DNA from: Squalus acanthias
Lineage: Eukaryota
Assembly: GCA_030390025.1 (NCBI GenBank)
Contig: CM059430.1
Coordinates: 3,968,001-4,032,000 of the forward strand
DNA: 64,000 bases
Reading direction: 5' to 3'
In this document: in pieces, positions 3,066-63,391 of the stretch
Layout of the letters: each line of letters opens with the position of its first letter
Numbering within the stretch: the stretch's first letter is position 1
Notes under the pieces: generated by a model
Told to the model about the DNA's origin: nothing
The model's input: only the letters and a program-made list of their open reading frames with translations
Database searches by the model: none
Translations under genes and position numbers: made by a program

Positions 3066-3185
3066 TATCATTACACTATTTTCGACAAAAGCCATCCCCT
3101 ACAGTCTGAGTGGGCCTACTAATTACTGTTGAGTATATAGGTTTGTGCTGTGGGCCCACAACCATTGAGAATTTGGATTAGACGG

Positions 3186-3436
3186 CCCAAACTCTGCGAG
3201 GACCCTTGCTGAGCCAGAGAGAGAGCGAGAGCTACTACCCAAACTCTGCGAGGACCCTTGCTGAGCCAGAGAGAGAGCGAGAGCTACTACCCAAACTCTG
3301 CGAGGACCCTTGCTGAGCCAGAGAGAGAGAGAGAGCTACTGCCCAAACTCTGCGAGGACCCTTGTTGAGCCAGAGAGAGAGAGAGAGCTACTGCCCAAAC
3401 TCTGCGAGGACCCTTGCTGAGCCAGAGAGAGAGCTA
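3186..3436 (+). repeat. 52-bp minisatellite, about 4.8 copies, each with an internal (AG)n tract
   Basis: CCCAAACTCTGCGAGGACCCTTGCTGAGCCAGAGAGAGAG.GAGAGCTACT units start at 3186, 3238, 3290, 3342 and 3394. Confidence 0.95.
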
Positions 3437-3984
3437 TTCTGATCCCATAAATCTGGCTGGATTCAAACCCAGGTTCCGAGAGATATGAAAGAACTGGACT
3501 CCACTCTGACTCACTATATCCACCAGCCCCAGAATGCAGTTTCTTTGAAGCTGTTTTAAATAAGTTTTTCCACTAGTCATACTCACTATTGTGTTCTGAA
3601 TTATAGTCCTAGATAGACTGAGAAAAGGTGGCACAGACTCTAGTTCTGATGTGCAGTTTGGTCTTTGAGCCTTTAGTCAGATTTCTGACAGTGACTCACA
3701 AGAAAAGCAATTGAGACCAATTCACACTGTTCACACAAAGTCAGAAGGGAGCAGCCAATCATTGCGTTTGCCCTCTCGCCTTATTTTCTGGGACTGACAT
3801 CAAAATCACAAATTCCTACATATTATTCACTAATGAGTCAATCTGTTAAATGTCGGCTGATCCTGACCGATATCCTGAGTGCTGGATGACAGGAATGGTT
3901 GCCACAAGATAATATACATAGGCTGATTTCTGCCCATTCATAGTACATGGGCAAAAGACGTAGCATGATCCGTGTGTATATTAT

Positions 3985-4200
3985 GAAAGAAAAGAAAGAC
4001 TTGCATTTATATAGCGCCTTTCACCGGACGTCTCAAAGCGCTTTACAGCCAATGAAGTACTTTTGGAGTGTAGTCACTGTTGTAATGTTGGAAAGGCGGC
4101 AGCCAATTTGCGCACAGCAAGCTCCCACACACAGCAATGTGATAATGACCAGATAATCTGTTTTTGTTATGTTGGTTAAGGGATAAATATTGGCCAGGAC
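3985..4200 (-). mobile_element. Same SINE family, 3' half
   Basis: GACTTGCATTTATATAGCGCCTTTCAC...GGGATAAATATTGGCCAGGAC. Confidence 0.68.
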
Positions 4201-7200
4201 ATTATGCAACCTAGTGATGTTCCAAATACACTGGAAGTTTGTCAACGTTCTTCATGACTATAAAAGTCACATTGTGAGTGCTCACTTTGGCCTTCAAAAG
4301 TTGTCATTTACACAAAGTCCATGAAAACTAAGGGCCTGTGGAGGGGGATGAATGTATTCTTCTCACCTGGATAAACAATGAAAGGTTGACATCAACCGTT
4401 TCAGTGCTCAGACTCCACAGTTCATGCATACGGTGGTACTCATGGATTCTGGAATGAGGTGATATTCCGAGAGTAGCTGCTTGCTTACGTGCAACTAAAA
4501 TTGAACTACACTACGAACGTGAACACAACAGATTAATAAATAATTCATGTGAGTTAACTAAATCTACTCCATTTGACAGTTTAGGAAGCACCGATGCCTT
4601 TATGTAAGGGCACCATTGTTTCCACAGAAGAAGTAGCTTTTCTAACTCATTCTTGATTATTTTAAAATGCCCCTATTTCCATAAAAGCAGCCAACAAAGT
4701 CAAATTTAACAATGGTTATGGTAAAAATAAATATATATATAAAAAATATATTCAAAATCTTACGTCTTCATTCACTTCCTGTCAACTTTTGCTGCAGCAC
4801 CACCACCAGTGGGAGGGTTTAATTACAAGTTTACACAGGCAATTTTCATTATAAATGTGGACATAGTAATTTATAATGGAAATAGGAAAATTAGGGCAGA
4901 ATGTTTGACTTGAAAATTGGAACTGAATTACGTCTGTTTCCTGGCCTATGTGTCCCTCCGGCTTCGAACCATGACTGAAGGGTCAAGGAAAGTATTAGCT
5001 AAATAGAAATTTCCTCTAGATTTGCCTAAAATGTTTCACATTTAATGCCCCCTTTATGAAAGGAAGAATTTACTGTACTGGAGTATTCTTTTCCTATCCG
5101 ATCAATAATTTCTCCCTAAAACATTAATTTGCACTATTAAGTGGGGCTGCTGGAAGTCAGTATTTAGCTCTTGGATTGTCACGAGCAGTCCTATAGAATG
5201 ACATTTCGAGCATGTTACGTGACAGAGCTATGTTGTGTGGTTCTTCCTTGACACACTATGCAGTCAGACTATGCACAGAAACTGTTCCCAAAAACACAGG
5301 CTTTTCTGTGATCCTATCTTTTTTTTTAATGGAACAGCTTTACTGGCAGGAAAGCTGCACTAAAAAAAATTGTCCCAAAGCTACTGCCAAGTTGGGTTAA
5401 CTACAAGTCTGTGCCTGACATTGAGTGGAAGGTAAGTGGAATAAGGCTGGTAGATTTATGGCCATTTGTACCTGATTGTTCATACTAAAGCCATTATGGA
5501 ATGATTAGAGAAAAAGGTGAAGCTTTAAGTCCAGTGAAAATCAATACAACTGTCTACAGCAATTCAGCTGCCTGAGTCGAGTACCATTAACTGGATCTTT
5601 ATCCCGTCTTAGGTTACAGGGAGCTGGGTACAGGCTTGCTGTATGCCTACCTGAACAGTTCTTTGAAGTCAGGATGTTAAGCCATTTTTCTCCCCTTTCA
5701 TAAACCATGATTTTTGCTTTTAAAAGTTGCCACAGATTAGAAATTGCACCCAATTTTATTAAAATTGTATGAAAGCTGTTTGACAGCGACATCTTAATGT
5801 TTGCCAGCAATTTCCACTGTTCTATCTCCCCTCAATATATCACCATATGTCTCTAGCAGAACCTTCACTATACCATGGCATCATAATATTGACATCCTCT
5901 GATACCGATACCAAAAGCAAACTGAAAGTCACACTAAATATTCTCAAATAAGGTATATATATATATATTACACTTTTTAACCAGAAATATACATTTAACA
6001 AAGTGGCCCTTTTGGTTTTATGCTGCCTTTCAAATCTCTAATCATACATTTTATTTAAGCACCATCACATTTTTGGGCTTCTCTGTGTTTGAAGGTTTTA
6101 AAATACAATTTTGCTTTATTTGTACTTTATACGTGGACAATTCTCATTTCAGCAGTAAATTACTGTTCATGAGGGAAAGGAAGTTAGGAGGGAGGGAGTA
6201 AATAAGTTCTCCAAACCAGTTCCACTGAAGTCTTTTACATCCATTCTCACATTCCCTCCCCCCCCTTCCCTTTTTAAGAGAAATAATCAGCAAGTCGAAT
6301 AAAAGCACAGATCAACACCAGCACAAAAATTAAACATGGAGCAAGTTACCATCTACCCATTCATGTTTTTTAACCCTTTGAAGTTCTGTAAAAATACACA
6401 GCCTTCCACACAGCATGGTCAAGGATGTTTGTTGGTCCATTTCTAGTAACACATGCTATAAAGTAGAAATAGAGCAACTGATTCTGCAGATGAGTGGAAA
6501 CCATTTCTTAATTCATACCATGTGTGATCTTGAAAGAAGCTGAAAACAAACAGTTTGAACCTCTGGGATTTCAAGTAGGACTCTGCTCTTTTGGTCAAAA
6601 AGCTGTCTCAGACCTCAAAGTCGGAGGTATTTCTGAGAAGTCTGACCTTACATTTGCCAGAAGGATCGTCTCCAAATATGTAGTGCTGCATATTTATATA
6701 GCCAGCAACAAAAATAAATTCAACATTAGTTATCTTAGCTGAAAGCTCCAACAATTAAAACCTTTATTTCTCAAGTTCTAAAAGCTGTAACTGCAGGGCT
6801 CTAACATCTAGACACAATCAAAAATGGAATAGAATCTGCTGCAAAATCCCCACCAGAAATGCCCCCTGGCCACCCCCCCCCCACCCCATTTTATAATTCA
6901 CTTCTCAGTAAAAGCTATGTCAAATCCATTCATCAATCACAACTCTACATAAAGGACATTAAATAATAGAGTATAACACATTGAATTTTATGGTAAGTAT
7001 CATAAGAATTAGACATTTTTGTGTAAGGAAGAGAAATAAATCTTGATTAATGGCATCAGATCAATTTTAAATTGTGCTCATTGGGCCAAGTTGATAGGCC
7101 TCATTTTTCTTAAAATTAAAAACATTAGTTTGTTGATTTCAAATACAATGACGCAACCACCCAAATTCACACAGAGACACGCTTACGGATGGGGTACAGT

Positions 7201-14020: not shown

Positions 14021-14296
14021 CCATGGCCATAGTTGGCGCATGACCCAAGAATAAAACATAAATGTGAGCACAAAGGCAAAAGAGAGTTACAACAGCACAG
14101 AGCAACTGATTCAGTTCACACTAAAGTTAAGGCAATTTTGAGCCTTAAACCTTAGACTTGAAACTGTCTTCTGCAGTCAACATATTCAGTCAACAGAATG
14201 AATGATGAGGCAGGGAAAAATTTTCAATATCTAAATGAACAATGAAATTCTGTACTTTTACAGCCAAGGTCTGTCTGAAAGTATCTCCAATATGAA

Positions 14297-15818
14297 GCAT
14301 AGAAGATAGGAGCAGGAGTAGGCCATTCGGCCCCTCGAGCCTGCTCCACCATTTAATGAGATCATGGCTGATCATCCAAATTCAGTACCCTGTCCCTGCC
14401 TTCTCCCCATATCCCTTAATCCCTTTAGCCTTAAGAAATATATCTATCTCCTTCTTGAATATATTTAATGAATTGGCCTCAACTGCCTTCTGTGGTAGAG
14501 AATTCCACAGGTTCACCACTCTCTGGGTGAAGAAATTCCTCCTCATCTCAGTCCTAAATGGCTTACCACTTATCCTTAGACTGTGACCTCTGGTTCTGGA
14601 CTCCCCCGCCATCGGGAACATCCTTCCTGCATCTAGTCTGTCTAGTCCTGTTAGAATTTTATAAGTTTCAATGAGATTCCCTCTCATTCTTCTAAACTCC
14701 AGCGAATACAAGCCTAATCGACCCAATCTCTCTTCATACGTCATTCCTGCCATCCCAGGTATCAGTCTGGTGAATCTTCGCTGCACTCCCTCCATGGCAA
14801 GAACATCCTTCCTCAGATAAGGCGACCAAAACTGCACACAATACTCAAGGTGTGGTCTCACCAAGGCCTTGTACAACTGCAGCAAGACATCCTTGCTCCT
14901 GTACTCGAATCCTCTCGCTATGAAGGCCAACATACCATTTGCCTTCTTAACCGCCTGCTGCATCTGCATGCTTACCTTCAGCGACTGGTGCACAAGGACT
15001 CGCAGATCTCGTTGCACTTCCCCTTTTCCCAATCTATTCCCGTTCAGATAATAATCTGTCTTCCTGTTTTTGCCACCAAAGTGGATAACCTCGCATTTAT
15101 CCACATTATACTGCATCTGCCATGCATCTGCCCAATCACCCAAGCTGTCCAAATCATACTGGAGTTTCTCTGCATCCTCCTCACAGCACACACGCCCACC
15201 CAGCTTTGTGTCGTCTGCAAACCTAGAGATATTACGTCTAGTTCCCTCGTCTAGATCATTAATATATATTGTGAATAGCTGGGGTCCTAGCACCGATCCC
15301 TGCGGTACTCCACTAGTCACTGCCTGCCACTCGGAAAAAGACCCGTTTATTCCAACTCTTTGCTTCCTGTCTGCCAACCAGTTCTCTATCCAAATCAGTA
15401 CCTTACCCCCAATCCCATGTGCTTTAGCTTTGCACGCTAATCTCTTATGCGGGACCTTATCGAAAGCCTTCTGAAAGTCCAAATACATCACATCCACTGG
15501 TTCTCCCTTATCTATTCTACCAGTTACATCCTCAAAAAATTCCAGTAGATTAGTCAAGCATGATTTACCTTTTGTAAATCCATGTTGACTTTGTCCGATC
15601 CTGTCACTGTTTTCCAAGTGCTCTGCTATTACATCTTTTATAATGGACTCTAGCATTTTCCCCACAACCGATGTCAGGCTTACTGGTCTATAATTCCCCG
15701 TTTTCTCTCTCCCACCTTTTTTAAACAGTGGGGTTACATTAGCTACCCTCCAATCCATGGGAACTGTTCCAGAGTCTATAGAATTTTGAAAGATGACCAG
15801 CAATGCATCTACTATTTC
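14297..15818 (-). mobile_element. Young 5'-truncated CR1 LINE with uninterrupted ORF2 RT and C-terminus
   Basis: ORF to stop at 14382 with [63 protein letters not shown]. 3' UTR ends CTCCTATCTTCTATG. Possible TSD TATGAA (14291-14296 and 15819-15824). Confidence 0.95.
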
Positions 15819-27629: not shown

Positions 27630-28955
27630 CTAAAAATTGAAACATAAAAGAAATAAATAAATGCATTATACATAGAAATAAACTCTAACATCTGACATAC
27701 TGCTACCAAATACTTTAGGATAAATTGGCCCTTAGAGTAATATATTCCTTCTATATTTTACGGAAAACTGAGTATCTACAAGATTAACATTCCATAAAAT
27801 TCTAAAGCCTGAATTACTCTTGGCAATATAAGTGGACAAAGGCTCAACTCTCTGCCCACTATTTTAGCAGGAGTATTAGCTCATTTCAAATAAATCGGTT
27901 AATCCCTTACAGGCAGAGACAGGAGAAATTATAACGGGGAATAAGGAAATGGCAGAGACATTTCATCTGTCTTCACGGAAGAAGACACAAAAAACATTCC
28001 GGAAATAGTGGGCAGCCAAGGGTCCAGTGAGAATGAGGAACTTAAAGAAATTATTATTAGTAAATAATTAGTACTGGAGAAATTAATGGGACTAAAAGCC
28101 AAAGAAATCCCCTGGACCTGATGGCCTACATCCGAGGGTTTAAAAACAGGTAGCTACAGAGATAGTGGATGCATTGGTTTTGATCTTCCAGAATTTCCTA
28201 TATTCTAGAATGGTCCCCGTGGATTGGAAGGTAGCAAATTCAAGAAAGGAGGGAGAGAGAAAACAGGGAACTATAGACCAGTTAGCCTGACAACAGTAGT
28301 AGGGAAAATGCTAGAATGTACTGTTAGGGATGTGGTAGCAGTGCACTTAGAAAATCATGATATGATTAGGCAGAGTCAGCATAGATTTATGAAAAGGAAA
28401 TCTTGTTTAACAAATCTGTTTGAGATTTTTGAGGTTGTAACTAGCAGGGTAGTTAAGGGGGAACCAGTGGATGTAGTGTATTTGGATTTTCAAAAAGCAT
28501 TCGATAAGGTGCCTCACAAGAGGTTATTACACAAAATTAGGACCCATGGGATTGGGGGTAATATACTAGCATGGATTGAGGATTGGTTAATGGACAGAAA
28601 ACAGAGAGTAGGAATAAACAGGTCATTTTCAGGTTGGCAGGCTGTAACTAGTGGGGTACCACAAGGATCAGTGCTTGGGCCTCAGCTATTCACAATCTAT
28701 ATCAATGACTCAGATGAGTGGACCGAGTGCAATGTATCCAAGTTTGCTGACAATACAAAGCTAGGTGGGAAAGTAAATTGTGAGGAGGACGCAAAGAGGC
28801 TGCAAAGGGATATAGACAGACTAAATGAGTGGGCAAGAACATGACAGATGGAATAAAATGTGGAGAAATGTGAAGTTATCCACTTTGGTAGGAAAACTAG
28901 AAAAGCAGAATATTTATTAAATGTTGAGAGATTGGGAAATGTTGGTATTCAAAGG

Positions 28956-29172
28956 TGGTCATGATGCGGAGATGCCGGTGTTGGACTGGGGTGGACAAAA
29001 ATGAGAAGTCGCACAACACCAGGTTATAGTCCAACAGTTTTATTTGAAATTACGAGCTTTCGGAGCGCTGCTCCTTCGTCAGGTGAAGTGAGGGAATACA
29101 AATCGGCTCCGAAAGCTCGTAATTTCAAATAAAACTGTTGGACTATAACCTGGTGTTGTGCGACTTCTCATT
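28956..29172. mobile_element. Palindromic Penelope-like pLTR insertion, family A, nested in a CR1
   Basis: 69-bp perfect inverted arms 28998-29066 and 29106-29174; tail 28956-28997. 14-bp direct repeat TTGGTATTCAAAGG at 28942-28955 and 29173-29186. CR1 ORF2 sequence resumes across the insertion. Confidence 0.85.
29050..29086 (-). ncRNA. Minimal hammerhead ribozyme motif
   Basis: Minus strand reads TCAC-CTGACGA-A-GGAGC agc GCTCC-GAA-AGCT-C-GTAA: perfect 5-bp stem II, CUC cleavage triplet, one mismatch in stem I. Confidence 0.72.
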
Positions 29173-30076
29173 TTGGTATTCAAAGGGATCTGGGTGTCCT
29201 TGTACACGAATCACTGAAAGTGAGTATGCAGGTACAGCATGCAAATAGGAAAGCAAATGGTATGTTAGCCTTTATTTCAAGGGGGTTGGAGTATAAGAGT
29301 AAAGAAGTCTTACTGCAATTATATAGGGCCTTGGTAAGACCACACCTGGAGTACTGTGTACAGTTTTGGTCTCCTTACCCAAGGAAGAATATACTTGCCA
29401 TAGAGGGAGTGCAACGAAGGTTCACCAGACTGATTCCTGGAATGGGGGGGATTGTCCTATGAGGAGAGATTGAGGAGACTAGGCCTATATTCCCTAGAGA
29501 TTAGAAAAATGAGAGGTGATCTCATTGAAATGTATAAAATTCTTAAGGGGCTTGACAGGGTAGATGCTGGAGGATGTTTCCCCTGGCTGGGGAGTCTAGA
29601 ACTCGGTGTCACAGTCTCAGAATAAGGGGTCGGCCATTTAGGACTGAGATGAGGAAAAATTTCTTCACTCAATGGGTTGTGAATCTTTGGAATTCTCTAC
29701 CCTAGAGGGCTGTGGATGCTCAGTCGTTGAGTATATTCAAGACAGATATTGATAGCTTTTTGGATACTAAGGGAACCAAGGGATATGGGGATAGTGCGGG
29801 AAGGTGGAGTTGAGGTTGAAGATCAGCCATGATCTTATTGAAGATCAGCCATGCTCTTATTGAATGGCTCGAAGGGTCGAATGGCCTGTTCCTGTTCCTA
29901 TTTCTTATGTTCTTATGTTAAAACAGCAAACAGAGGAATGTCATACAAATGTGTTCAATGGTCACCCATTAATGTTGCCAGTGATTTCTAAGCAAATAGG
30001 ACTAAAATGATCACTAAAGAAAAGGTAAATATCTCTTTCATCAGCTCTCCAACGGTCAAGAGAAACTGAACATATC

Positions 30077-40075: not shown

Positions 40076-41628
40076 GCCGATACTCTCTGGAGTTTAGAAA
40101 AATGAGAGGTGATCTCATTGAAATATACAAGATTCTTAGGGGGATTGACAGGGTAGATGCTGAGAGGTGGTTTCCAAGCACATGGGATTGGGGGTAAGGT
40201 ACTGACTTGGATAGAGAACTGGTTGGCAGACAGGAAGCAAAGAGTTGGAATAAACGGGTCTTTTTCCGAGTGGCAGGCAGTGACTAGTGGGGTTCCGCAG
40301 GGATCGGTCCTAGGACCCCAGTTATTCACAATATATATTAATGATCTAGACGAGGGAACTAGATGTAATATCTCCAAGTTTGCAGACAACACAAAGCTGG
40401 GTGGGCGTGTGTGTTGTGAGGAGGATGCAGAGAAACTCCAGTATGATTTGGACAAGTTGGGTGATTGGGCAGATGCATGGCAGATGCAGTATAATGTGGA
40501 TAAATGCGAGGTTATCCACTTTGGTGGTAAAAACAAGAAGGCAGATTATTATCTGAACGGCAATAGATTGGGAAAAGGGGAAGTGCAACGAGACCTGGGA
40601 GTCCTTGTGCACCAGTCGCTGAAGGTAAGCATGCAGGTGCAGCAGGCGGTTAAGAAGGCAAATGGTATGTTGGCCTTTGTAACGAGAGGGTTCGAGTACA
40701 GGAACAAGAATGTCTTGCTGCAGTTGTACAAGGCCTTGGTGAGACCACACCTTGAGTATTGTGTGCAGTTTTGGTCGCCTTATCTGAGGAAGGATGTTCT
40801 TGCCATGGAGGGAGTGCAGCGAAGATTCACCAGACTGATACCTGGGATGGCAGGAATGACGTATGAAGAGAGATTGGGACGATTGGGCTTGTATTCGCTA
40901 GAGTTTAGAAGAATGAGAGGGGATCTCATTGAAACTTATAAAATTCTAACAGGACTAGACAGACTAGATGCAGGAAGGATGTTCCCGATGGCGGGGGAGT
41001 CCAGAACCAGGGGTCACAGTCTAAGGATAAGGGGTAAGCCATTTAGGACTGAGATGAGGAGGAATTTCTTCACCCAGAGAGTGGTGAACCTGTGGAATTC
41101 TCTACCACAGAAGGCAGTTGAGGCCAATTCATTAAATATATTCAAGAAGGAGTTAGATATATTTCTTAAGGCTAAAGGGATCAAGGGATATGGGGAGAAA
41201 GCAGGGACAGGGTACTGAATTTGGATGATCAGCCATGATCTCATTAAATGGCGGCGCAGGCTCGAGGAGCCGAATGGCCTACTCCTGCTCCTATCTTCTA
41301 TGTTTCCCCTGTCTGGAGAGTCTAGAACAAGGGGGCAGTCTCAGGATAAGGGGTCAGCCATTTAAGATGGAGATGAGGAGGAATTTCTTCACTCAGAGGG
41401 TTGTGAATCTTTGGAATTCTCTGCCCCAAAGGGTTGTGGATGCTGAGTCGTTGAGTATATTCAAGGCTGAGAGCGATAGATTTTTGGACTCTAGGGGAAT
41501 CGAGGGATATGGAGATCGGGCGGGAAAGTGGAGTTGAGGTCGAAGATCAGCCATGATCTTATTGAATGGCGGAACAGGCTCGAAGGGCCGTATGGCCTAA
41601 TCCTGCTCCTAATTCTTATGTTCTTATG
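40076..41628 (+). mobile_element. Host CR1 3' fragment (40076-40175 plus 41302-41628), split by the nested CR1
   Basis: Sequence for [20 protein letters not shown] continues after the insert as FPCLESLEQ...MRRNFFTQRVVNLWNSLP; ends TTCTTATGTTCTTATG. Confidence 0.88.
40176..41301 (+). mobile_element. Young 5'-truncated CR1 (same subfamily as 14297-15818) inserted into an older CR1
   Basis: About 16 aa differences over about 346 aa versus the 14-kb copy and a near-identical 3' UTR. GTTTCC duplicated at 40170-40175 and 41302-41307. Confidence 0.93.
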
Positions 41629-45073: not shown

Positions 45074-45324
45074 CATGGCAAGTAAGCAAGTACCTTCCTG
45101 GCTGACTTGATTAACTTTATCACACCTCGGCAGATAGTCAGGATGATTTAATTTAGTGGTCTGCAATTGTAAGGTACACATGCTTTGTTCTCTATCTATA
45201 TATGCTTTGGCGATTCTGTATCTAATTTACTTCACCTGAGGAAGGGGCAATCGATAGCTCCGAAAGCTTGTGATTTCAAATAAAACTGTTGGACTATAAC
45301 CTGGTGTTGTGCGACCTCTCAATT
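45074..45324 (+). mobile_element. Solo (non-palindromic) family A PLE pLTR fragment with hammerhead motif at 45232-45273
   Basis: 45224-45324 matches the 63-kb right arm. Motif TCAC-CTGAGGA-A-GGGGC aatcgata GCTCC-GAAAGCTT-GTGA. Direct repeat AAGTAAGAAAAC at 45062-45073 and 45325-45336. Confidence 0.78.
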
Positions 45325-48300: not shown

Positions 48301-48869
48301 CCCATGTCACTCAAATATATATAATGGCCTTGTTAGGATCTAAACGAATAGTTTTCTGGCAAAAAAGAGAAGGCAGCTCAGAAATACTGGCAGCAATATG
48401 AAGCTCTGACTGTCACTGTGCTCCTGCAAAGTAGGCTGCATTTTCTTTCAAATTATAATAGTAGTCATGGGAGAAGGGCAAGGACAGAGCAGCGAAAGCA
48501 AATCCCCCCCCCCCCCCCCCCCCCCCCATCCCCTTTATTCAATTCTGTCCCCAGGTTCCATTAGTGATGTGTACGTTATATCCTACATTGTTCTATTCAA
48601 CACACAAAAACATGAGCTCACAGTTCTAATTCTGATCTGGTTTGGCTCTATCTCCGGGGGTGTGAAGACCATATTCTAACTCACTACATCACCAATTCCA
48701 CTTTTAGTACAAAAGCAAAATTCTGCAGTGCAAAGGAATGACTACATTTTATTTATCTTTCAAATGAAGCTCAACGGAAGCGCGAGGAACGGCGCCTCAT
48801 CTTTCGGTTAGGCACTTTACAGCCTTCCAGACTCAATGTTGAGTTGAAACCGTTTCAGATCATAAGTAA

Positions 48870-49299: not shown

Positions 49300-49645
49300 A
49301 CCACTGCTCCCATTTCTTCAGATAGCAGTAATGATTCTGCTTTTGTCATTTTCAGCTCTCTAGACCCATCTTTTGTTTCTTTTATTGTCCCATTACCATC
49401 TCCTTTTTGCCTTGTACCATCATCCCTTTTGTCATTTAATCTCTCCTGCCTTTCACCCTATCACAGACCTTCCCTTTTGTTCTTTCCTCCACCCCACCTT
49501 TCCCTGCCTCTGTACTTGCTTAAAATCTGTTACAACTCTAACTTTTTCCAGTTCTGTTCAAAGGTCATTGACCTGAAATGTTAACTCTGTTTCTCTCTCC
49601 ACAGATGCTGCCTGACCTGATGAGCATTTCCAGCATTTTTCACTT
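49300..49645 (+). mobile_element. Family B pLTR fragment with pyrimidine-rich upstream part; hammerhead core mutated
   Basis: CAGTTCTGTTCAAAGGTCATTGACCTGAAATGTTAACTCTGTTTCTCTCTCCACAGATGCTGCC (from about 49549) matches family B. The 5' boundary is approximate. Confidence 0.65.
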
Positions 49646-50020: not shown

Positions 50021-50125
50021 AAGTTCTGAAGGGTCTCGTCCAAAACATTAACTTTACCGTCTCTTTCAGGTGTTCACTGACCAAACTGAGCAGTTCCAGA
50101 ATTTTCTGTTTTTATTTCAAATTTA
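50021..50125 (+). mobile_element. Old family B-related pLTR fragment
   Basis: AGTTCTGAAGGGTCTCGTCCAAAACATTAAC...CTGAGCAGTTCCAGAATTTTCTGTTTTTATTTCA shows degenerate similarity to family B. Confidence 0.5.
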
Positions 50126-58762: not shown

Positions 58763-58854
58763 AGCCAGTTCTGACGCAGCGTCATCGACCTGAAACCTAA
58801 CTCCTCAGATGCTGCCTAACCTGCTGAGTATTTCCAGCTTTTTCTGTTTTTATT
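58763..58854 (+). mobile_element. Solo decayed family B pLTR fragment
   Basis: CCAGTTCTGACGCAGCGTCATCGACCTGAAACCTAACTC...GATGCTGCCTAACCTGCTGAGTATTTCCAGC matches the 60-kb arm. 13-bp direct repeat TGAGAAATGTTAA at 58750-58762 and 58855-58867. Confidence 0.75.
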
Positions 58855-60146
58855 TGAGAAATGTTAACGCCTGGGATATTTTGATCAGGTAACATCTTGT
58901 GTAATACAATTACAACAGGAGAGAGTAAAAATTCCTGTCGGCAAATTTTACGCAACAGCACTTAACATGCTCATACCACATTCCTGTATGTTCTGTACTT
59001 ATGCAAGTATTAACATAAATGGGTTAACACCTGCACAAGAACGTCACACACAAAATGTAACACAAACACATTAAGCAGTCATATGTAAAATTTGATCAGA
59101 ATTTCTAATCTAATATCTACTAATAAACAATTTACTATGTTTACAGCAGTGACAGAAATAGCCTCAAAGTTATTAGCCAATAGGGAAAATATTTCTTTTC
59201 CAGCAACTTTGGTAAGTAAAGCCACCCTTTGTCAGCCCTTTAAAGATAAGTTTGACAGTAATTCTTCATGCTTCATATTCATCTTATGAGTCGATCTTCA
59301 CATTCCACGTCGATTACAGCCATCAACTGGCATGTATTCTATATCTAAAAACAGTTAAAAGCTGTCATTAAATAAATTTAAGAGTTCAGTTGTAAAAAGA
59401 TGTTCTTATATAAACTAATGCCTCGTGTCTGCTCATCTGGCAGAAGATAAGTACCTTCCTCCTAAATTGGCAGTGAATGAGTTTTAAAAATTTGTTACAA
59501 CACCTGCAAAATATAAATCATCAGAGTGTTGTGGCTAGCAAGTCAGGAATTAAGTGAAGCATCACTCGAGAAAATTCAGTACACATAAAGTACAGCATTT
59601 TACTAAACCGCAGCATACCAGGGCCGACCCAAGGATTTTTCCTTTCTATCTCTTCTCTTCAGACTTGCTGCAATGTGTCCTGCAGATGTTGCCGTTAATT
59701 CATCAGTCCAACTCCTGGAGGAGTTATTGCAAAGCTGAGCACGCAGCACAGTTATGTACAGACAAACCCACAAAGACACACAAATACAACAGTTTGTGTG
59801 TACGCTGACAAACACACACTCATTTAGTTTACCCACAAACATGATTAAAGGTTTACAGCTTAGCACGCATTTAGCAGAAAATAATAACGGCAACAAATTT
59901 GATAATGAAAGGGTTGCCTTGTATGGTGGGTTGAGAACAAGGAACGGCTTTGGGACAGCACAAGACTCAAGCCGGGAAATGATAACCCCCTCACCCAATT
60001 CCCATCAACTTCCCACACCTACACAGCCCTCCTTGGACAATCTAAGTCTCCATGGACGTCAATAATGCTCTTCCTTGTCTGACCTACCAGGAGATTCACT
60101 TAACCATGGGAACCGGTGCCTAGCCAGTCAACTCTTGTGGTATTCA

Positions 60147-60382
60147 AAATAACAACAGAAAACGCTGGAAAAACTCAGCAGGCCAGGCAGCATCCGTGGA
60201 GAGAGAAAGAGAGTTAACGTTTCAGGTCGATGACCTTTCATCAGAACTGTTCTGACGAAAGGTCATTGACCTGAAACGTTAACTCTCTTTCTCTCTCCAC
60301 GGATGCTGCCTGGCCTGCTGAGTTTTTCCAGCGTTTTCTGTTGTTATTTCAGATTTCCAGCATCCGCAGTATTTTGCTATCG
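60147..60382. mobile_element. Palindromic Penelope-like pLTR insertion, family B (101-bp arms plus 33-nt tail)
   Basis: Arms 60147-60247 and 60249-60349 with 2 mismatches and a 1-nt centre. Tail 60350-60382. 14-bp direct repeat TCTTGTGGTATTCA at 60133-60146 and 60383-60396. Confidence 0.85.
60249..60283 (+). ncRNA. Minimal hammerhead ribozyme motif, family B (mirror copy on - strand at 60212-60248)
   Basis: GTT-CTGACGA-A-AGGTC att GACCT-GAA-ACGT-T-AAC. The minus-strand copy reads AGTT-CTGATGA-A-AGGTC atc GACCT-GAAACGTT-AACT. Confidence 0.7.
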
Positions 60383-62654
60383 TCTTGTGGTATTCATCTT
60401 GAATCAGGAGTCTAAGAACCCAGTATTGCAGCTAATGGGCCAATGGGCAGTAACTATTTTTTTTAAAGAACAAATCCTCTTAATACTTCAAATTCAACAA
60501 GAATTCTAATATTTATTTCACACTGGTTTTTTTTCTCCAAAATGTATACTAACCATTTTTTTTTCCTGTAACACCAATTGGCTGCATAAGGACTGTGGAG
60601 TTACTCTTTCATCTAAAATATTGGGAGCTGACAAGGGCAATAAACACAAGGAAAGATGTAGTTTTCCTGCCCTCTGGCTCTTCTATTGTTTCCAATAGGA
60701 GAAGAAAAAATATAGGTCTAATTATAAACTGCAGTAAAAGACCAATGCAGTTAAACTCCTGACTTCAGCACCCAAGCAGCTGGTCTTAAATACCTAGCTA
60801 TTTTTAGATAATAGATATATTTTTTCTTAAACTAAATGCAGCCCAGGAATAACAAAGAGTTAATTCAGTTTGGAGGTTGTTTTAAATAAAAATAAAACTT
60901 CAGAAGCTGTAAAAGCAAAATATTTTTTCAACACTTAAGCAAACTCATTTTGTGTAATATCCCCTGACAGTATAAAAGAACTTTTCAAATTGCTTTATAT
61001 AAATAATAAACCCAAAGATCACTTCACTTATTGCCTTATTTCCTCATCATCATTTTTTAAAGTAAATCCTATTCAGTTACGTGCAACATTTACACTCGTT
61101 TCTCTGTAGATAAAGTGAAAGGGTAGGAGAGTGGGGGGTGGGGGGGGAGATGATTTTCTCAGTCCTGTGAGTTCTTCACACTGCATAATAGGGGTTCAAA
61201 TCTCTTGTAACTTGCAGAAAACTTCTGAGAATACACACACTCTTAAGGCTTTCTCTAGTTGTAAGCCACAACACACCAGGCAATGCTGGAATATCAAATG
61301 TGATGGCCCCCTGCTTTGTTTAGGGAGAGCTCTGTAATAGCAACCTTTTAATCTTGGTGGTTTTGTTTAGGTGCTGCATATTCATTTCAAGGATTTCTCT
61401 CTCTTTTTACTACTCTATACATATGGTTCAACCAGGATGACAAGCGACACTAGCTCCTTTTATATTGGTTTCTATTGCGCTTGTGCTGCTGGTTCCTGAG
61501 GTGCCGGTCTTGCCCAACCGACAGCAACCCCAGAGTGAACTTGTTGGATTTGCTGAAGACCGGGGGTGGGGGGAAAAAACTGGTCACCCTGCGTCAACGA
61601 ACCCAGCAAGCTTACTTTGGATTGCTGCCCCAAGACTCGCATGTCGGGAGCCAGTGGCACTCGCACAGCACAAAAACAACCACCAGCTGTTGTCCTGTAC
61701 ACTTTAGGAGTGCAGCCAGAGGCAGAAACAAGGTTCGCCCGCCGTTGGCTGCAGTCCTGTGAGTGAGCAAGCCGAGGTTTGTAGACTCACAGAATTACGG
61801 TTCGATAAAGCTTACAGGTTAAGTAGCGGTTTCAGTGAAATAAACCTGAGGAGATGGTCCTGTGTCCCTGCACACCGTGGGGTACAATTTCAGGCAAGCC
61901 CACCACCCACTCGACGGAAGTGGTTGGAGTCCCAAACCATTCTCATGCTCGGGCTGCACTTAAATATAATCGGCGTGCTGCTGGTGTTAAGTGAGAGCTG
62001 ATAGGCAATTTGACGATTGGAGCAGGCGGGGGGGGGTGGGGGGGGGGGCGGGGGGAGGAAATCCAGAGCCTCTTCTGCGGAGCCAAGCTAGCCGCAGTAA
62101 GTAAAAGGTGATTACGGGGATGGGAGTTAGACTGTTGATCATGCAATGGGAAGAGTTGATTTTTGTGGGGCCAGAGCCTTTTTTTAAAAACTCGATACGC
62201 CCATTGGTAGCTCAAAATTACATCGGGGTGCTGTTACTATCACATGGGCTGTTGCGGCGCCTGCCTGTTTCTGGTGGCACCCGGGTCCGCCATTTTAAGG
62301 TCCCCGCCAAAATGGCGGCAGCAGGAACGGGGCAGGCAAGTGCCATGCCACTTTTTTTTTTAAACGGTGAGAGTGTAGTGCATGAAGTTCACTCTCCAGA
62401 AACAGGATCTCAGAGTGAGTGAAAACCATCACCTGTGAATGACGAGTATCTTTGAGGTCGCCACAGTTTTCCCATTACCATGAAAAGGTCCGACTGCAAC
62501 AACATGCTCAGCCTTTCAGTACAATCGTGAATGTTTCAAATGCAAGTTCAAGTTAAAAAAAAAGCTCAGAGAGATGGCGTAGCTTTGCGTTCAAGGTGTG
62601 GACAGAATGTCACATTACAGTAGAATTTGGTCACAATTGACCAGACTAATTAAT

Positions 62655-62742: not shown

Positions 62743-63166
62743 GGATGGCACAAAGAGGAAAGTGAAATAATGTGGGTTCTACTGTAGAGCAATTTTCCTC
62801 ACAATTTCTTTTTTTCCCCCCTCTTTGCCTCCTGAACTCTCAATGCTGGAGTATGATTTCGCAGTCCCCAGCAACTTCCCCACCCCCGTATCACACTCAA
62901 GTGATCATTCTTCATCAGTGGGCCTGGTGTTGATGGGAGTCATAGCCCGGCCTAATTCTGTCTTCACCCAACATCTACAAGTGCACTTTCCAGCAGGGTG
63001 TCACTGGATGGTGATCAATGGTGGGAATCTCGGCTAATTTTCATTCGTCCTTAGTTCAGGAACATTGAGACCAGTTGTGGTGGCCCACCGCTGCCCAATG
63101 TGAGATCAGCAATCTCAGCACAGACCTGTGATCAACCCAGGAATCTTCCTGGTGGAGATGTTTTCA

Positions 63167-63391
63167 AAATTGAGAGGTCGCACAACACCAGGTTATAGTC
63201 CAACAGTTTTATTTGAAATCACAAGCTTTCGGAACTATCGCTCCTTCCTCAGGTGAAGTCCAATTTACTTCACCTGAGGAAGGAGCGATAGTTCCGAAAG
63301 CTTGTGATTTCAAATAAAACTGTTGGACTATAACCTGGTGTTGTGCGACCTCTCAATTTTGTCCACCCCAGTCCAACACCGGCATCTCCGC
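63167..63391. mobile_element. Palindromic Penelope-like pLTR insertion, family A (95-bp perfect inverted arms plus 30-nt tail)
   Basis: 63165-63259 is the exact reverse complement of 63267-63361, with a 7-nt loop. Tail 63362-63391. Direct repeat GAGATGTTTTCA at 63155-63166 and 63392-63403. PLE assignment rests on the hammerhead motif and the inverted-arm-plus-tail architecture. Confidence 0.85.
63270..63307 (+). ncRNA. Minimal hammerhead ribozyme motif (mirror copy on - strand at 63219-63256)
   Basis: TCAC-CTGAGGA-A-GGAGC gata GTTCC-GAA-AGCT-T-GTGA: stem I, conserved core, stem II, and palindromic AGCT in place of helix III. Confidence 0.75.

Follow-up and report, generated by a model that had tools for sequence, protein, structure and literature searches.

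The insert at 60133..60396 of the window (the whole stretch of 64,000 nucleotides from Squalus acanthias that was analyzed here) is a 236-base mirror image, bounded by a target-site duplication and in which the end of a Penelope-type element that carries the ribozyme is present twice, back to back. Its arm is almost certainly the pseudo-LTR plus tail of an autonomous Penelope-like element (PLE) of ~3.2 kb with Neptune-type motifs, and the insert as a whole is probably a single, extremely 5'-truncated head-to-head insertion, in which both nicked target strands would likely have primed on one uncleaved RNA.

Anatomy of the insert

The features of the insert are given in Table 1, with unit position 1 set at 60249. 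The dimensions in the preliminary description of this DNA proved exact: the 101-nt arms (60147-60247 and 60249-60349) differ by just two mismatches, the tail is 33 nt long, and the 14-mer of the target-site duplication, present at 60133-60146 and again at 60383-60396, has no further occurrence on either strand of the window. The proposed core, CUGA(C/U)GA-A-AGGUC/GACCU-GAAA-CGU-U, was also found on both the + strand (C3 at 60252) and the - strand (C3 at 60244). In each arm, CUGANGA and the extra A are followed by stem II (5 bp, closed by a loop of 3 nt) and then by GAAA, CGU and U, the whole being flanked by the two strands of stem I, (A)GUU/AAC(U). In the right arm, the extra A is located at 60259, stem II at 60260-60272 and GAAA at 60273-60276, and the predicted cut falls after 60280; stem I is just 3 bp here because this copy begins at unit position 1. 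The left-arm motif has U at N7, AGUU/AACU as its stem I and a predicted cut after 60216. We noticed that the left arm truly extends to 60249 (unit position -1), and therefore the 'spacer' between the arms has a template, with one G shared by both arms. As had been stated, the two arm mismatches are located at N7 (60240/60256) and in loop II (60229/60267), and both are CpG transitions; for this reason, their placement at tolerant positions is uninformative on selection, being explained by CpG decay and providing no evidence of selection.

Table 1. Features of the insert, numbered from the first base of the window
Feature	Position	Strand	Basis
Target-site duplication, left copy, 14 bp	60133..60146	+	13-16 bp duplications in 26/40 same-centre palindromes
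Untailed arm (inverted pseudo-LTR, unit -1 to 101)	60147..60249	-	99% identity over 103 nt to L118
Left-arm minimal type I hammerhead motif	60212..60248	-	Sequence and pair counts in copies
Tailed arm (direct pseudo-LTR, unit 1 to 101)	60249..60349	+	96% identity over 138 nt (tail included) to L118
Right-arm minimal type I hammerhead motif	60249..60284	+	Sequence and pair counts in copies
Tail, 33 nt	60350..60382	+	Continues into the reading-frame start in the full element
Target-site duplication, right copy, 14 bp	60383..60396	+	Same 14-mer as 60133-60146

The parent element and its copy number

Most of the first 30 core matches in the genome turned out to be 3' ends of a longer element rather than palindromes, with an RT containing YIDD, a CX4CXXC linker and a GIY-YIG domain lying upstream of the core matches. 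A pattern running from the tail into the reading frame (588 matches) led us to a head-to-tail array (L118-L120) with a period of 3,198 bp, including two intact 971-codon RT + GIY-YIG frames (L118); tandem copies forming pseudo-LTRs are present in this array, and the unit of our insert is the junction of the 3' end with the next reading frame in the 3,198-bp tandem element. Another locus, L031, has an intact 943-codon frame, whose 5' end adjoins a tailed copy in inverted orientation (unit 43-134). The combination expected of EN+ PLEs, namely an inverted 5'-truncated copy beside the 5' end, a tail of 30-40 nt at one end and a target duplication, was found in this family.

The parent protein has RT followed by a C-terminal GIY-YIG in one frame, as in EN+ PLEs; the Pfam hits to RVT_1 and GIY-YIG each fall below the curated cut-off, and the motifs DKG, YIDD and GIY-YIG are present. 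The translated frame also harbors a CCHH motif, two cysteines of which are located within GIY-YIG (VYCIRCSRC...YIG, then two histidines), as well as a CX2-5CXXC linker between RT and endonuclease at residues 837-845. In the available text of PMC8557442, this linker is described for Neptune and Nematis and given as absent from Penelope/Poseidon. A homologue search with the parent protein returned 1,488 proteins at E<=1e-50; the Atlas and homologue searches yield RT proteins of the same architecture, and the closest named relative is a shark protein (71% over 65% of length).

With respect to the start of the long frame, both the ATG inside the core (where N7 = U) and the ATG at position 55 are in frame with it. 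Eight of the nine recurrent variant sites in unit 37-107 lie at first or second codon positions, however, and 5 of 39 copies of the unit have a 2-nt deletion in common. Based on this codon-position pattern and the deletion, a later ATG (MPTLKK) is more likely to be the true start, as judged from the letters of the copies. Protein-coding constraint on the unit, considered separately, is opposed by the same two observations.

Copies of the unit were counted in the 3.7-Gb genome with sequence patterns. The 32-nt core pattern gave 14,541 exact matches vs. 0 for a reversed control, and the hammerhead core pattern is therefore not due to chance; a looser core pattern gave 39,819 matches and a tail pattern 37,338. 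Another hammerhead palindrome, which the preliminary description had treated as family A (the present family being B), was represented by 12,512 pattern matches. A GUC subfamily of family B, with 3,289 matches and the intact tandem array among its members, softens the earlier caveat that the GUU triplet is suboptimal for cleavage.

Palindromes as an outcome of insertion

The palindrome had been considered the design of the family, a view that we could not sustain: centres and arm lengths vary, most copies are non-palindromic and the unit is the end of a 3.2-kb element. Among 69 tail-selected loci (the first 30 on contig C1 plus 39 of the next 70 listed, which is not a random draw), 40 had no adjacent inverted arm and 29 carried one directly upstream, or 25 when a shorter reference was used. 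We also examined all 40 loci with the exact centre of our insert. Here, the tail was found on one arm in 39, on both arms in 0 and on neither in 1; the duplications measured 13-16 bp in 26 and 9-12 bp in 10, with none found in 4; and the central base was T, A, C or G. Untailed arms end anywhere from 19 to about 104, and palindromes occur in old and young subfamilies alike. Genome-wide, cores positioned head to head with 0-30 nt between them gave 872 and 864 strand matches, the first 100 of which displayed, by eye, spacers of 0 to 30 nt with many different centres and often untemplated letters. The varying centres and arm lengths, the several subfamilies involved and the variants private to the arms of one locus thus point to a frequent outcome of insertion rather than a lineage, with palindromes appearing to be rebuilt at each insertion. 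Copies with a fixed centre and fixed ends that descend from one another, as in an independent palindromic family, were not found among these loci.

One can argue that the palindrome is itself a non-autonomous unit, retrozyme-like or MITE-like, which is transcribed, self-cleaving and copied whole. The identical centre at 40 loci would fit this proposal, as would the roughly 870 strand matches per orientation with head-to-head cores within 30 nt and the many solo 134-nt units with target duplications of their own. However, these 40 loci belong to different subfamilies and differ in central base and arm ends, and the arms of each pair match each other rather than other palindromes; in addition, each strand has a single sense hammerhead buried in a hairpin, whereas animal retrozymes, as defined in bioRxiv 10.64898/2026.07.22.740005, require tandem direct hammerheads. 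A unit of this type is largely refuted and, in our estimate, highly improbable.

The hammerhead motif and the two families

Conservation of the motif was assessed in 39 copies that had been selected by their tail and not by their core. A conserved core was confirmed insofar as the majority sequence keeps 11/11 core bases, but the core, while more constant than the tolerant positions and the upstream flank, exceeds the downstream flank only slightly: the share of non-majority letters was 3.3% for the core and 5.3% for the stems, as compared with 6.2% for the downstream flank, 17% for the upstream flank and 20% for tolerant positions, and U4C was found in 5 of the 39 copies. The CUGANGA + GAAA core, a UH triplet, stems I and II, the extra base after A9 and the palindromic 15-16 are all present. 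The G10.1-C11.1 pair, a feature that is conserved and not invariant in minimal hammerheads, is not the rule in family B, in which pair 10.1-11.1 is A-U in 20, G-U in 15 and G-C in 1 of the 39 copies. Within family B, no pair was changed on both sides, and variation was confined to A-U/G-U at 10.1-11.1 plus U-A/U-G at 2.1-1.1. A single comparison, of family A with family B, showed two-sided changes with pairing retained for 8 of 11 stem pairs, the core being kept, and in family A itself a pair of stem I is C-G in 17 of 30 copies and U-A in 11; these pair counts were hand-registered, with stems II and III of family A fixed by the search pattern. Position 53 and the tail, in a predicted helix of 52-60 with 110-118, showed no compensatory change (Fisher p = 0.50).

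For the entire insert, the predicted folding energy is -191.8 kcal/mol; imposing the hammerhead on it is penalized by 48.5 kcal/mol, as compared with 3.1 in the solo unit. Each strand of the palindrome carries one sense motif, so there can be no double hammerhead in cis; because this sole motif is buried in the 101-bp hairpin, the hammerhead in this copy is, according to the predicted folds, likely inert. In the RNA of the parent element, the hammerhead would be a genuine motif that travels as a passenger, and tandem copies there could pair as a double hammerhead.

Several observations would be in line with a core that is a chance look-alike or a DNA hairpin signal and not a ribozyme: 1) Rfam returned no hammerhead at E<=1 on the insert, just microRNA matches below the gathering score that are driven by the hairpin, a warning to annotators that such hairpins score as microRNA precursors; 2) conservation of the downstream flank comes close to that of the core, and U4C recurs as described above; 3) the monomer is predicted to misfold; 4) minimal hammerheads cleave poorly alone in vitro (PMC4209133) and 8/9 frog dimers remained uncleaved (bioRxiv 10.64898/2026.07.22.740005), as far as the available portions of these two sources show. 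Against a look-alike stand the stem pairs that differ on both sides between families A and B with the core kept, the C-G and U-A forms of the stem I pair in family A, and the choice of A or G opposite U at position 10.1 in family B. The same motif has also been described at the same place across PLEs (PMC4209133, in the text available), and that of the anole element cleaves with the help of protein (PMC11167929). Given these data, we regard a look-alike as very unlikely.

Families A and B had been called unrelated in sequence, and this is true for DNA, with similarity at the level of shuffles, but not for the proteins, which are homologous. The DNA local score of A vs. B is 20 (shuffles 17.1 +/- 2.9, with 79/500 as high) and, outside the core, 14 vs. 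a shuffle value of 14.7 (359/500 as high), while the two proteins share 31.5% identity over 883 residues. The unit of family A lies behind a frame with CX4CXXC (residues 780-788 of its protein) and GIY-YIG, with a tandem copy. Families A and B are therefore the ends of two Penelope-like elements with Neptune-type motifs, and both have the minimal type I hammerhead, the extra base before stem II and the palindromic 15-16 tetramer that had been noted for them. On this basis, the suggestion that a common replication mechanism underlies both is retained, since both are ends of such elements, with the qualification that the palindrome is not a design of the family itself; the shared design is instead the known insertion pattern of their class.

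5' ends and the position of the centre

Among 5' ends between -60 and +100, 24 of 65 fall at -5 to +6 and 4 of 65 near the predicted cut at 32/33; these are alignment ends against one young reference, a few of them inflated for old subfamilies (e.g. L096). For several of the solo copies that begin at -5 to +6, the 5' end is fixed by the target duplication of the copy itself. With 4/65 ends near the cut, hammerhead cleavage was ruled out as the source of the 5' ends, and the template RNA was likely uncleaved. The sequence at the pile-up of ends is CCAGTTC, which we take to fit the initiator consensus YYANWYY. An initiator-like motif is also described in the pseudo-LTR of rotifer elements in the available part of PMC3846280. 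We infer that this site may represent the 5' end of the RNA, which would explain why the centre of the palindrome lies beside the hammerhead; an alternative for the pile-up is an RT stop at a structure.

Junctions and the route of insertion

Concordance between the two arms of the 40 same-centre palindromes was far above that of shuffled pairs at eight diagnostic sites (e.g. 38/39 vs. 23.4, 33/36 vs. 17.0 and, at N7, 32/40 vs. 21.3). Rare alleles were found 18 times on both arms (10 loci) and 54 times on one arm alone. This concordance points to one template for both arms, as far as can be read from the copies, and rules out two independent RNAs drawn at random from the family. Private variants in common could also be produced by later gene conversion, by hairpin repair or by two RNAs of one source locus.

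The ends of the arms were likewise informative. Of the 29 inverted loci, 22 have an untailed arm that extends beyond the tailed arm on the upstream side (p = 0.008) and 7 show the reverse; the excess of the untailed arm amounts to 600-700 nt at both L085 and L069, and to about 3 kb at L031. The untailed arm is therefore not always a fold-back copy of the tailed strand. The tail, in turn, is without template in the untailed strand. The two end sites, about 99-104 and 133-139, recur in solo copies, which have no inversion, and untailed arms end at or before about position 104, like solo untailed copies. Of the 20 young palindromes scored (7 further young loci were unscored and old-subfamily loci left out), 15 overlap the target by 1-4 nt at their tailed end and 11 do so at their untailed end. 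Some centres contain palindromic untemplated letters, a fold-back signature judged by eye, and certain untailed arms stop well before 100 (19-82). In vitro, both target strands are cleaved and extended by the protein of the anole element, which begins synthesis at two internal sites, one at each boundary of the tail, and for which uncleaved RNA serves as template (PMC11167929).

Based on the one-sided tail, the longer untailed arm, the two end sites of solo copies, the overlaps with the target and the anole in vitro data, we infer two primers on one RNA, a route toward which we lean on balance. The nicks made by the endonuclease in the two strands would lie about 14 bases from each other; priming would then occur from one 3' end near position 100-104, at the start of the tail, and from the other near 133-139, at its end, positions that would match the pair of internal start sites of the anole element. 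From there, synthesis would run to the 5' end of the RNA, at the initiator-like CCAGTTC just before hammerhead stem I, and the products would be joined head to head via cDNA fold-back or short annealing, with repair filling the remainder. On the other side, the tailed arm is the longer one upstream in the 7/29 loci mentioned, the short untailed arms (19-82) fit a plain fold-back equally, and the palindromic untemplated centres fit a plain fold-back as well.

A single primer would be the obvious alternative, with the cDNA or an antisense RNA template folding back to yield the mirror arm and the endonuclease trimming one end to leave a one-sided tail. In addition to the private variants that the arms have in common and the palindromic untemplated centres, this proposal has published readings in its favor in the available text of two papers, i.e. 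self-priming on an antisense template for rotifer Penelopes (PMC3846280) and EN-mediated resolution for the tail (PMC8557442). With a sense template, however, fold-back of a tailed cDNA cannot make an untailed arm that is longer upstream (22/29; L031). Moreover, solo copies end at the same two places without inversion, and both tail boundaries are RT start sites in vitro for the anole element (PMC11167929). We consider fold-back from one primer the less likely route. Its antisense-template version is compatible with the junction data.

Extending the two-primer route beyond this locus, we tentatively propose that PLEs may integrate, unlike LINEs, by a two-ended reaction, in which both target strands prime the same uncleaved RNA at the ends of the tail, the pseudo-LTR being the stretch from transcription start (hammerhead stem I) to the priming sites. 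If true, this reaction would be recorded naturally in the thousands of young insertions of this genome, and it would account for the tail, the inversion and the 14-bp duplication together. The origin of inverted copies and one-sided tails of PLEs is called an open question in the literature consulted; this genome supplies tens of thousands of junctions and two parallel families for addressing it, and intact tandem copies with a GUC hammerhead are suited to the published anole in vitro assay (PMC11167929). Our literature search, which had subscription papers and supplements outside its scope, found no paper proposing twin priming or such a model for PLE inversions; the search for a paper on a shark PLE hammerhead family, with Repbase and Dfam outside its scope as well, found none. 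The mechanistic reading drawn from the junctions may be the new part of this work.

Comparison with known systems

The parent element resembles the Neptune clade, as described in the available text of PMC8557442, in having a single frame with RT then GIY-YIG, DKG, the CX2-5CXXC linker and two cysteines in GIY-YIG; this likely assignment is set by motifs, and Nematis also has the linker. It differs from that clade in that no microsatellite targeting was seen in the duplications listed (31% G+C).

As for the hammerhead, the minimal hammerheads of metazoan PLEs, in the part of PMC4209133 available, are likewise of type I with a short stem I, an extra base between 9 and 10.1, a palindromic 15.2-16.2 and no loop III, and are mostly solitary with some opposite-strand pairs. 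By comparison, stem II is 5 bp in family B, and 10.1-11.1 is A-U or G-U in family B in place of the conserved G-C, which is found in family A. Poseidon_Ac (PAc) of Anolis (PMC11167929) also has its hammerhead at the junction of pseudo-LTR and frame, intact in inserts, with the tail about 100-135 nt downstream and genomic ends at two sites; it belongs to another clade, and inverted insertions are not addressed in the main text of that paper. Animal non-LTR retrozymes, to the extent covered by the available text of bioRxiv 10.64898/2026.07.22.740005, are similarly short, non-coding, hammerhead-bearing and related to PLE pseudo-LTRs, but they are head-to-tail and able to cleave as dimers, whereas the two copies in our insert are head to head and each strand has a single sense motif; at least two head-to-tail hammerhead units, as in retrozymes, were not found at this locus, where the motifs lie on opposite strands.

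A close match is Pen2a_Av of Adineta vaga (PMC3846280; scheme in PMC8557442), in which, according to the accessible parts of both papers, an inverted shorter pseudo-LTR lies head to head with a direct copy. Pen2a_Av and other EN+ PLE insertions share with our insert the tail of 30-40 nt at one end, the target duplication, a pseudo-LTR plus tail that overlaps the start of the frame, an initiator-like motif and tandem copies. They differ in that the present insert consists of two pseudo-LTR copies alone, with no coding part, in that duplications are 14-15 bp here vs. 8-10 bp, and in the tens of thousands of copies found here. The layout of the insert is one that has already been described, that of a stub insertion of a Neptune-type Penelope-like element, and as a sequence feature it is ordinary, another footprint of a known class.

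Discussion

Analysis of the family B Penelope-like element (PLE), from which the palindrome at window 60133..60396 derives, located two intact PLE frames in a head-to-tail array at locus L118, with a PLE length of 3,198 bp in the array. In the hammerhead core of this subfamily, A6-U7-G8 constitutes an ATG whose reading frame is that of the entire protein, and the GUC triplet is also present in the same hammerhead. The PLE of the L118 array is a promising candidate for an active element. Among the four older family B fragments in the window, one originated from the endonuclease end of the family B frame. For family A, a second PLE, the element at locus L156 is the parent of the window copies at 28949-29177, 45229-45324 and 63165-63391.

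Location of intact frames and of other repeats
Feature	Location	Remarks
Intact frame of family A, 919 codons between stops	L156:817-3576 (genome G000, contig C1, about 5.495-5.500 Mb)	partial tandem
Two intact 971-codon PLE frames	L118:705-3620 and 3903-6818 (G000, contig C4, about 15.713-15.726 Mb)	head-to-tail array
Older non-palindromic family B fragments	window 49469-49639, 58765-58859, 50086-50124, 48751-48865	75-88% identity
Two LINE 3' fragments	window 14294-15424 and 40176-41306	opposite orientations; 1.13 kb each, 97% identical
Minisatellite, period about 52 bp	window 3134-3445	

Folding predictions for both families pair the tail with the pseudo-LTR body, and in the window copy of family B (60249-60382) unit positions 52-60 face 110-118; if this pairing forms, both putative priming sites, near unit 100-104 and 133-139, would sit around one helix. 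Covariation supporting the 52-60/110-118 helix was sought in family B and none was found. CGG is frequent at the pseudo-LTR/tail boundary in the young subfamily. At this boundary in the window (60335-60352), a pyrimidine tract leading into TTTCAG resembles a splice acceptor.

As gauged with an exact-match finder in a small sample of tail-selected loci (L068-L195), target duplications of palindromes had a mode of 14-15 bp vs. an apparently shorter 10-12 bp or so in solo copies starting at the hot spot of 5' ends (L080, L083, L086, L160, L172). A subfamily combining U4C in the hammerhead core with a shortened stem II/loop II accounted for 5 of 39 copies, including L069 and L086.

The LINE represented by the two window fragments, which we take to be CR1-like, has an open 346-codon RT end. 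As for the PLE, each of five organisms (runs X1-X8, X14-X19) contained 55-82% of sampled words from the element junction; several species thus carry near-identical copies.
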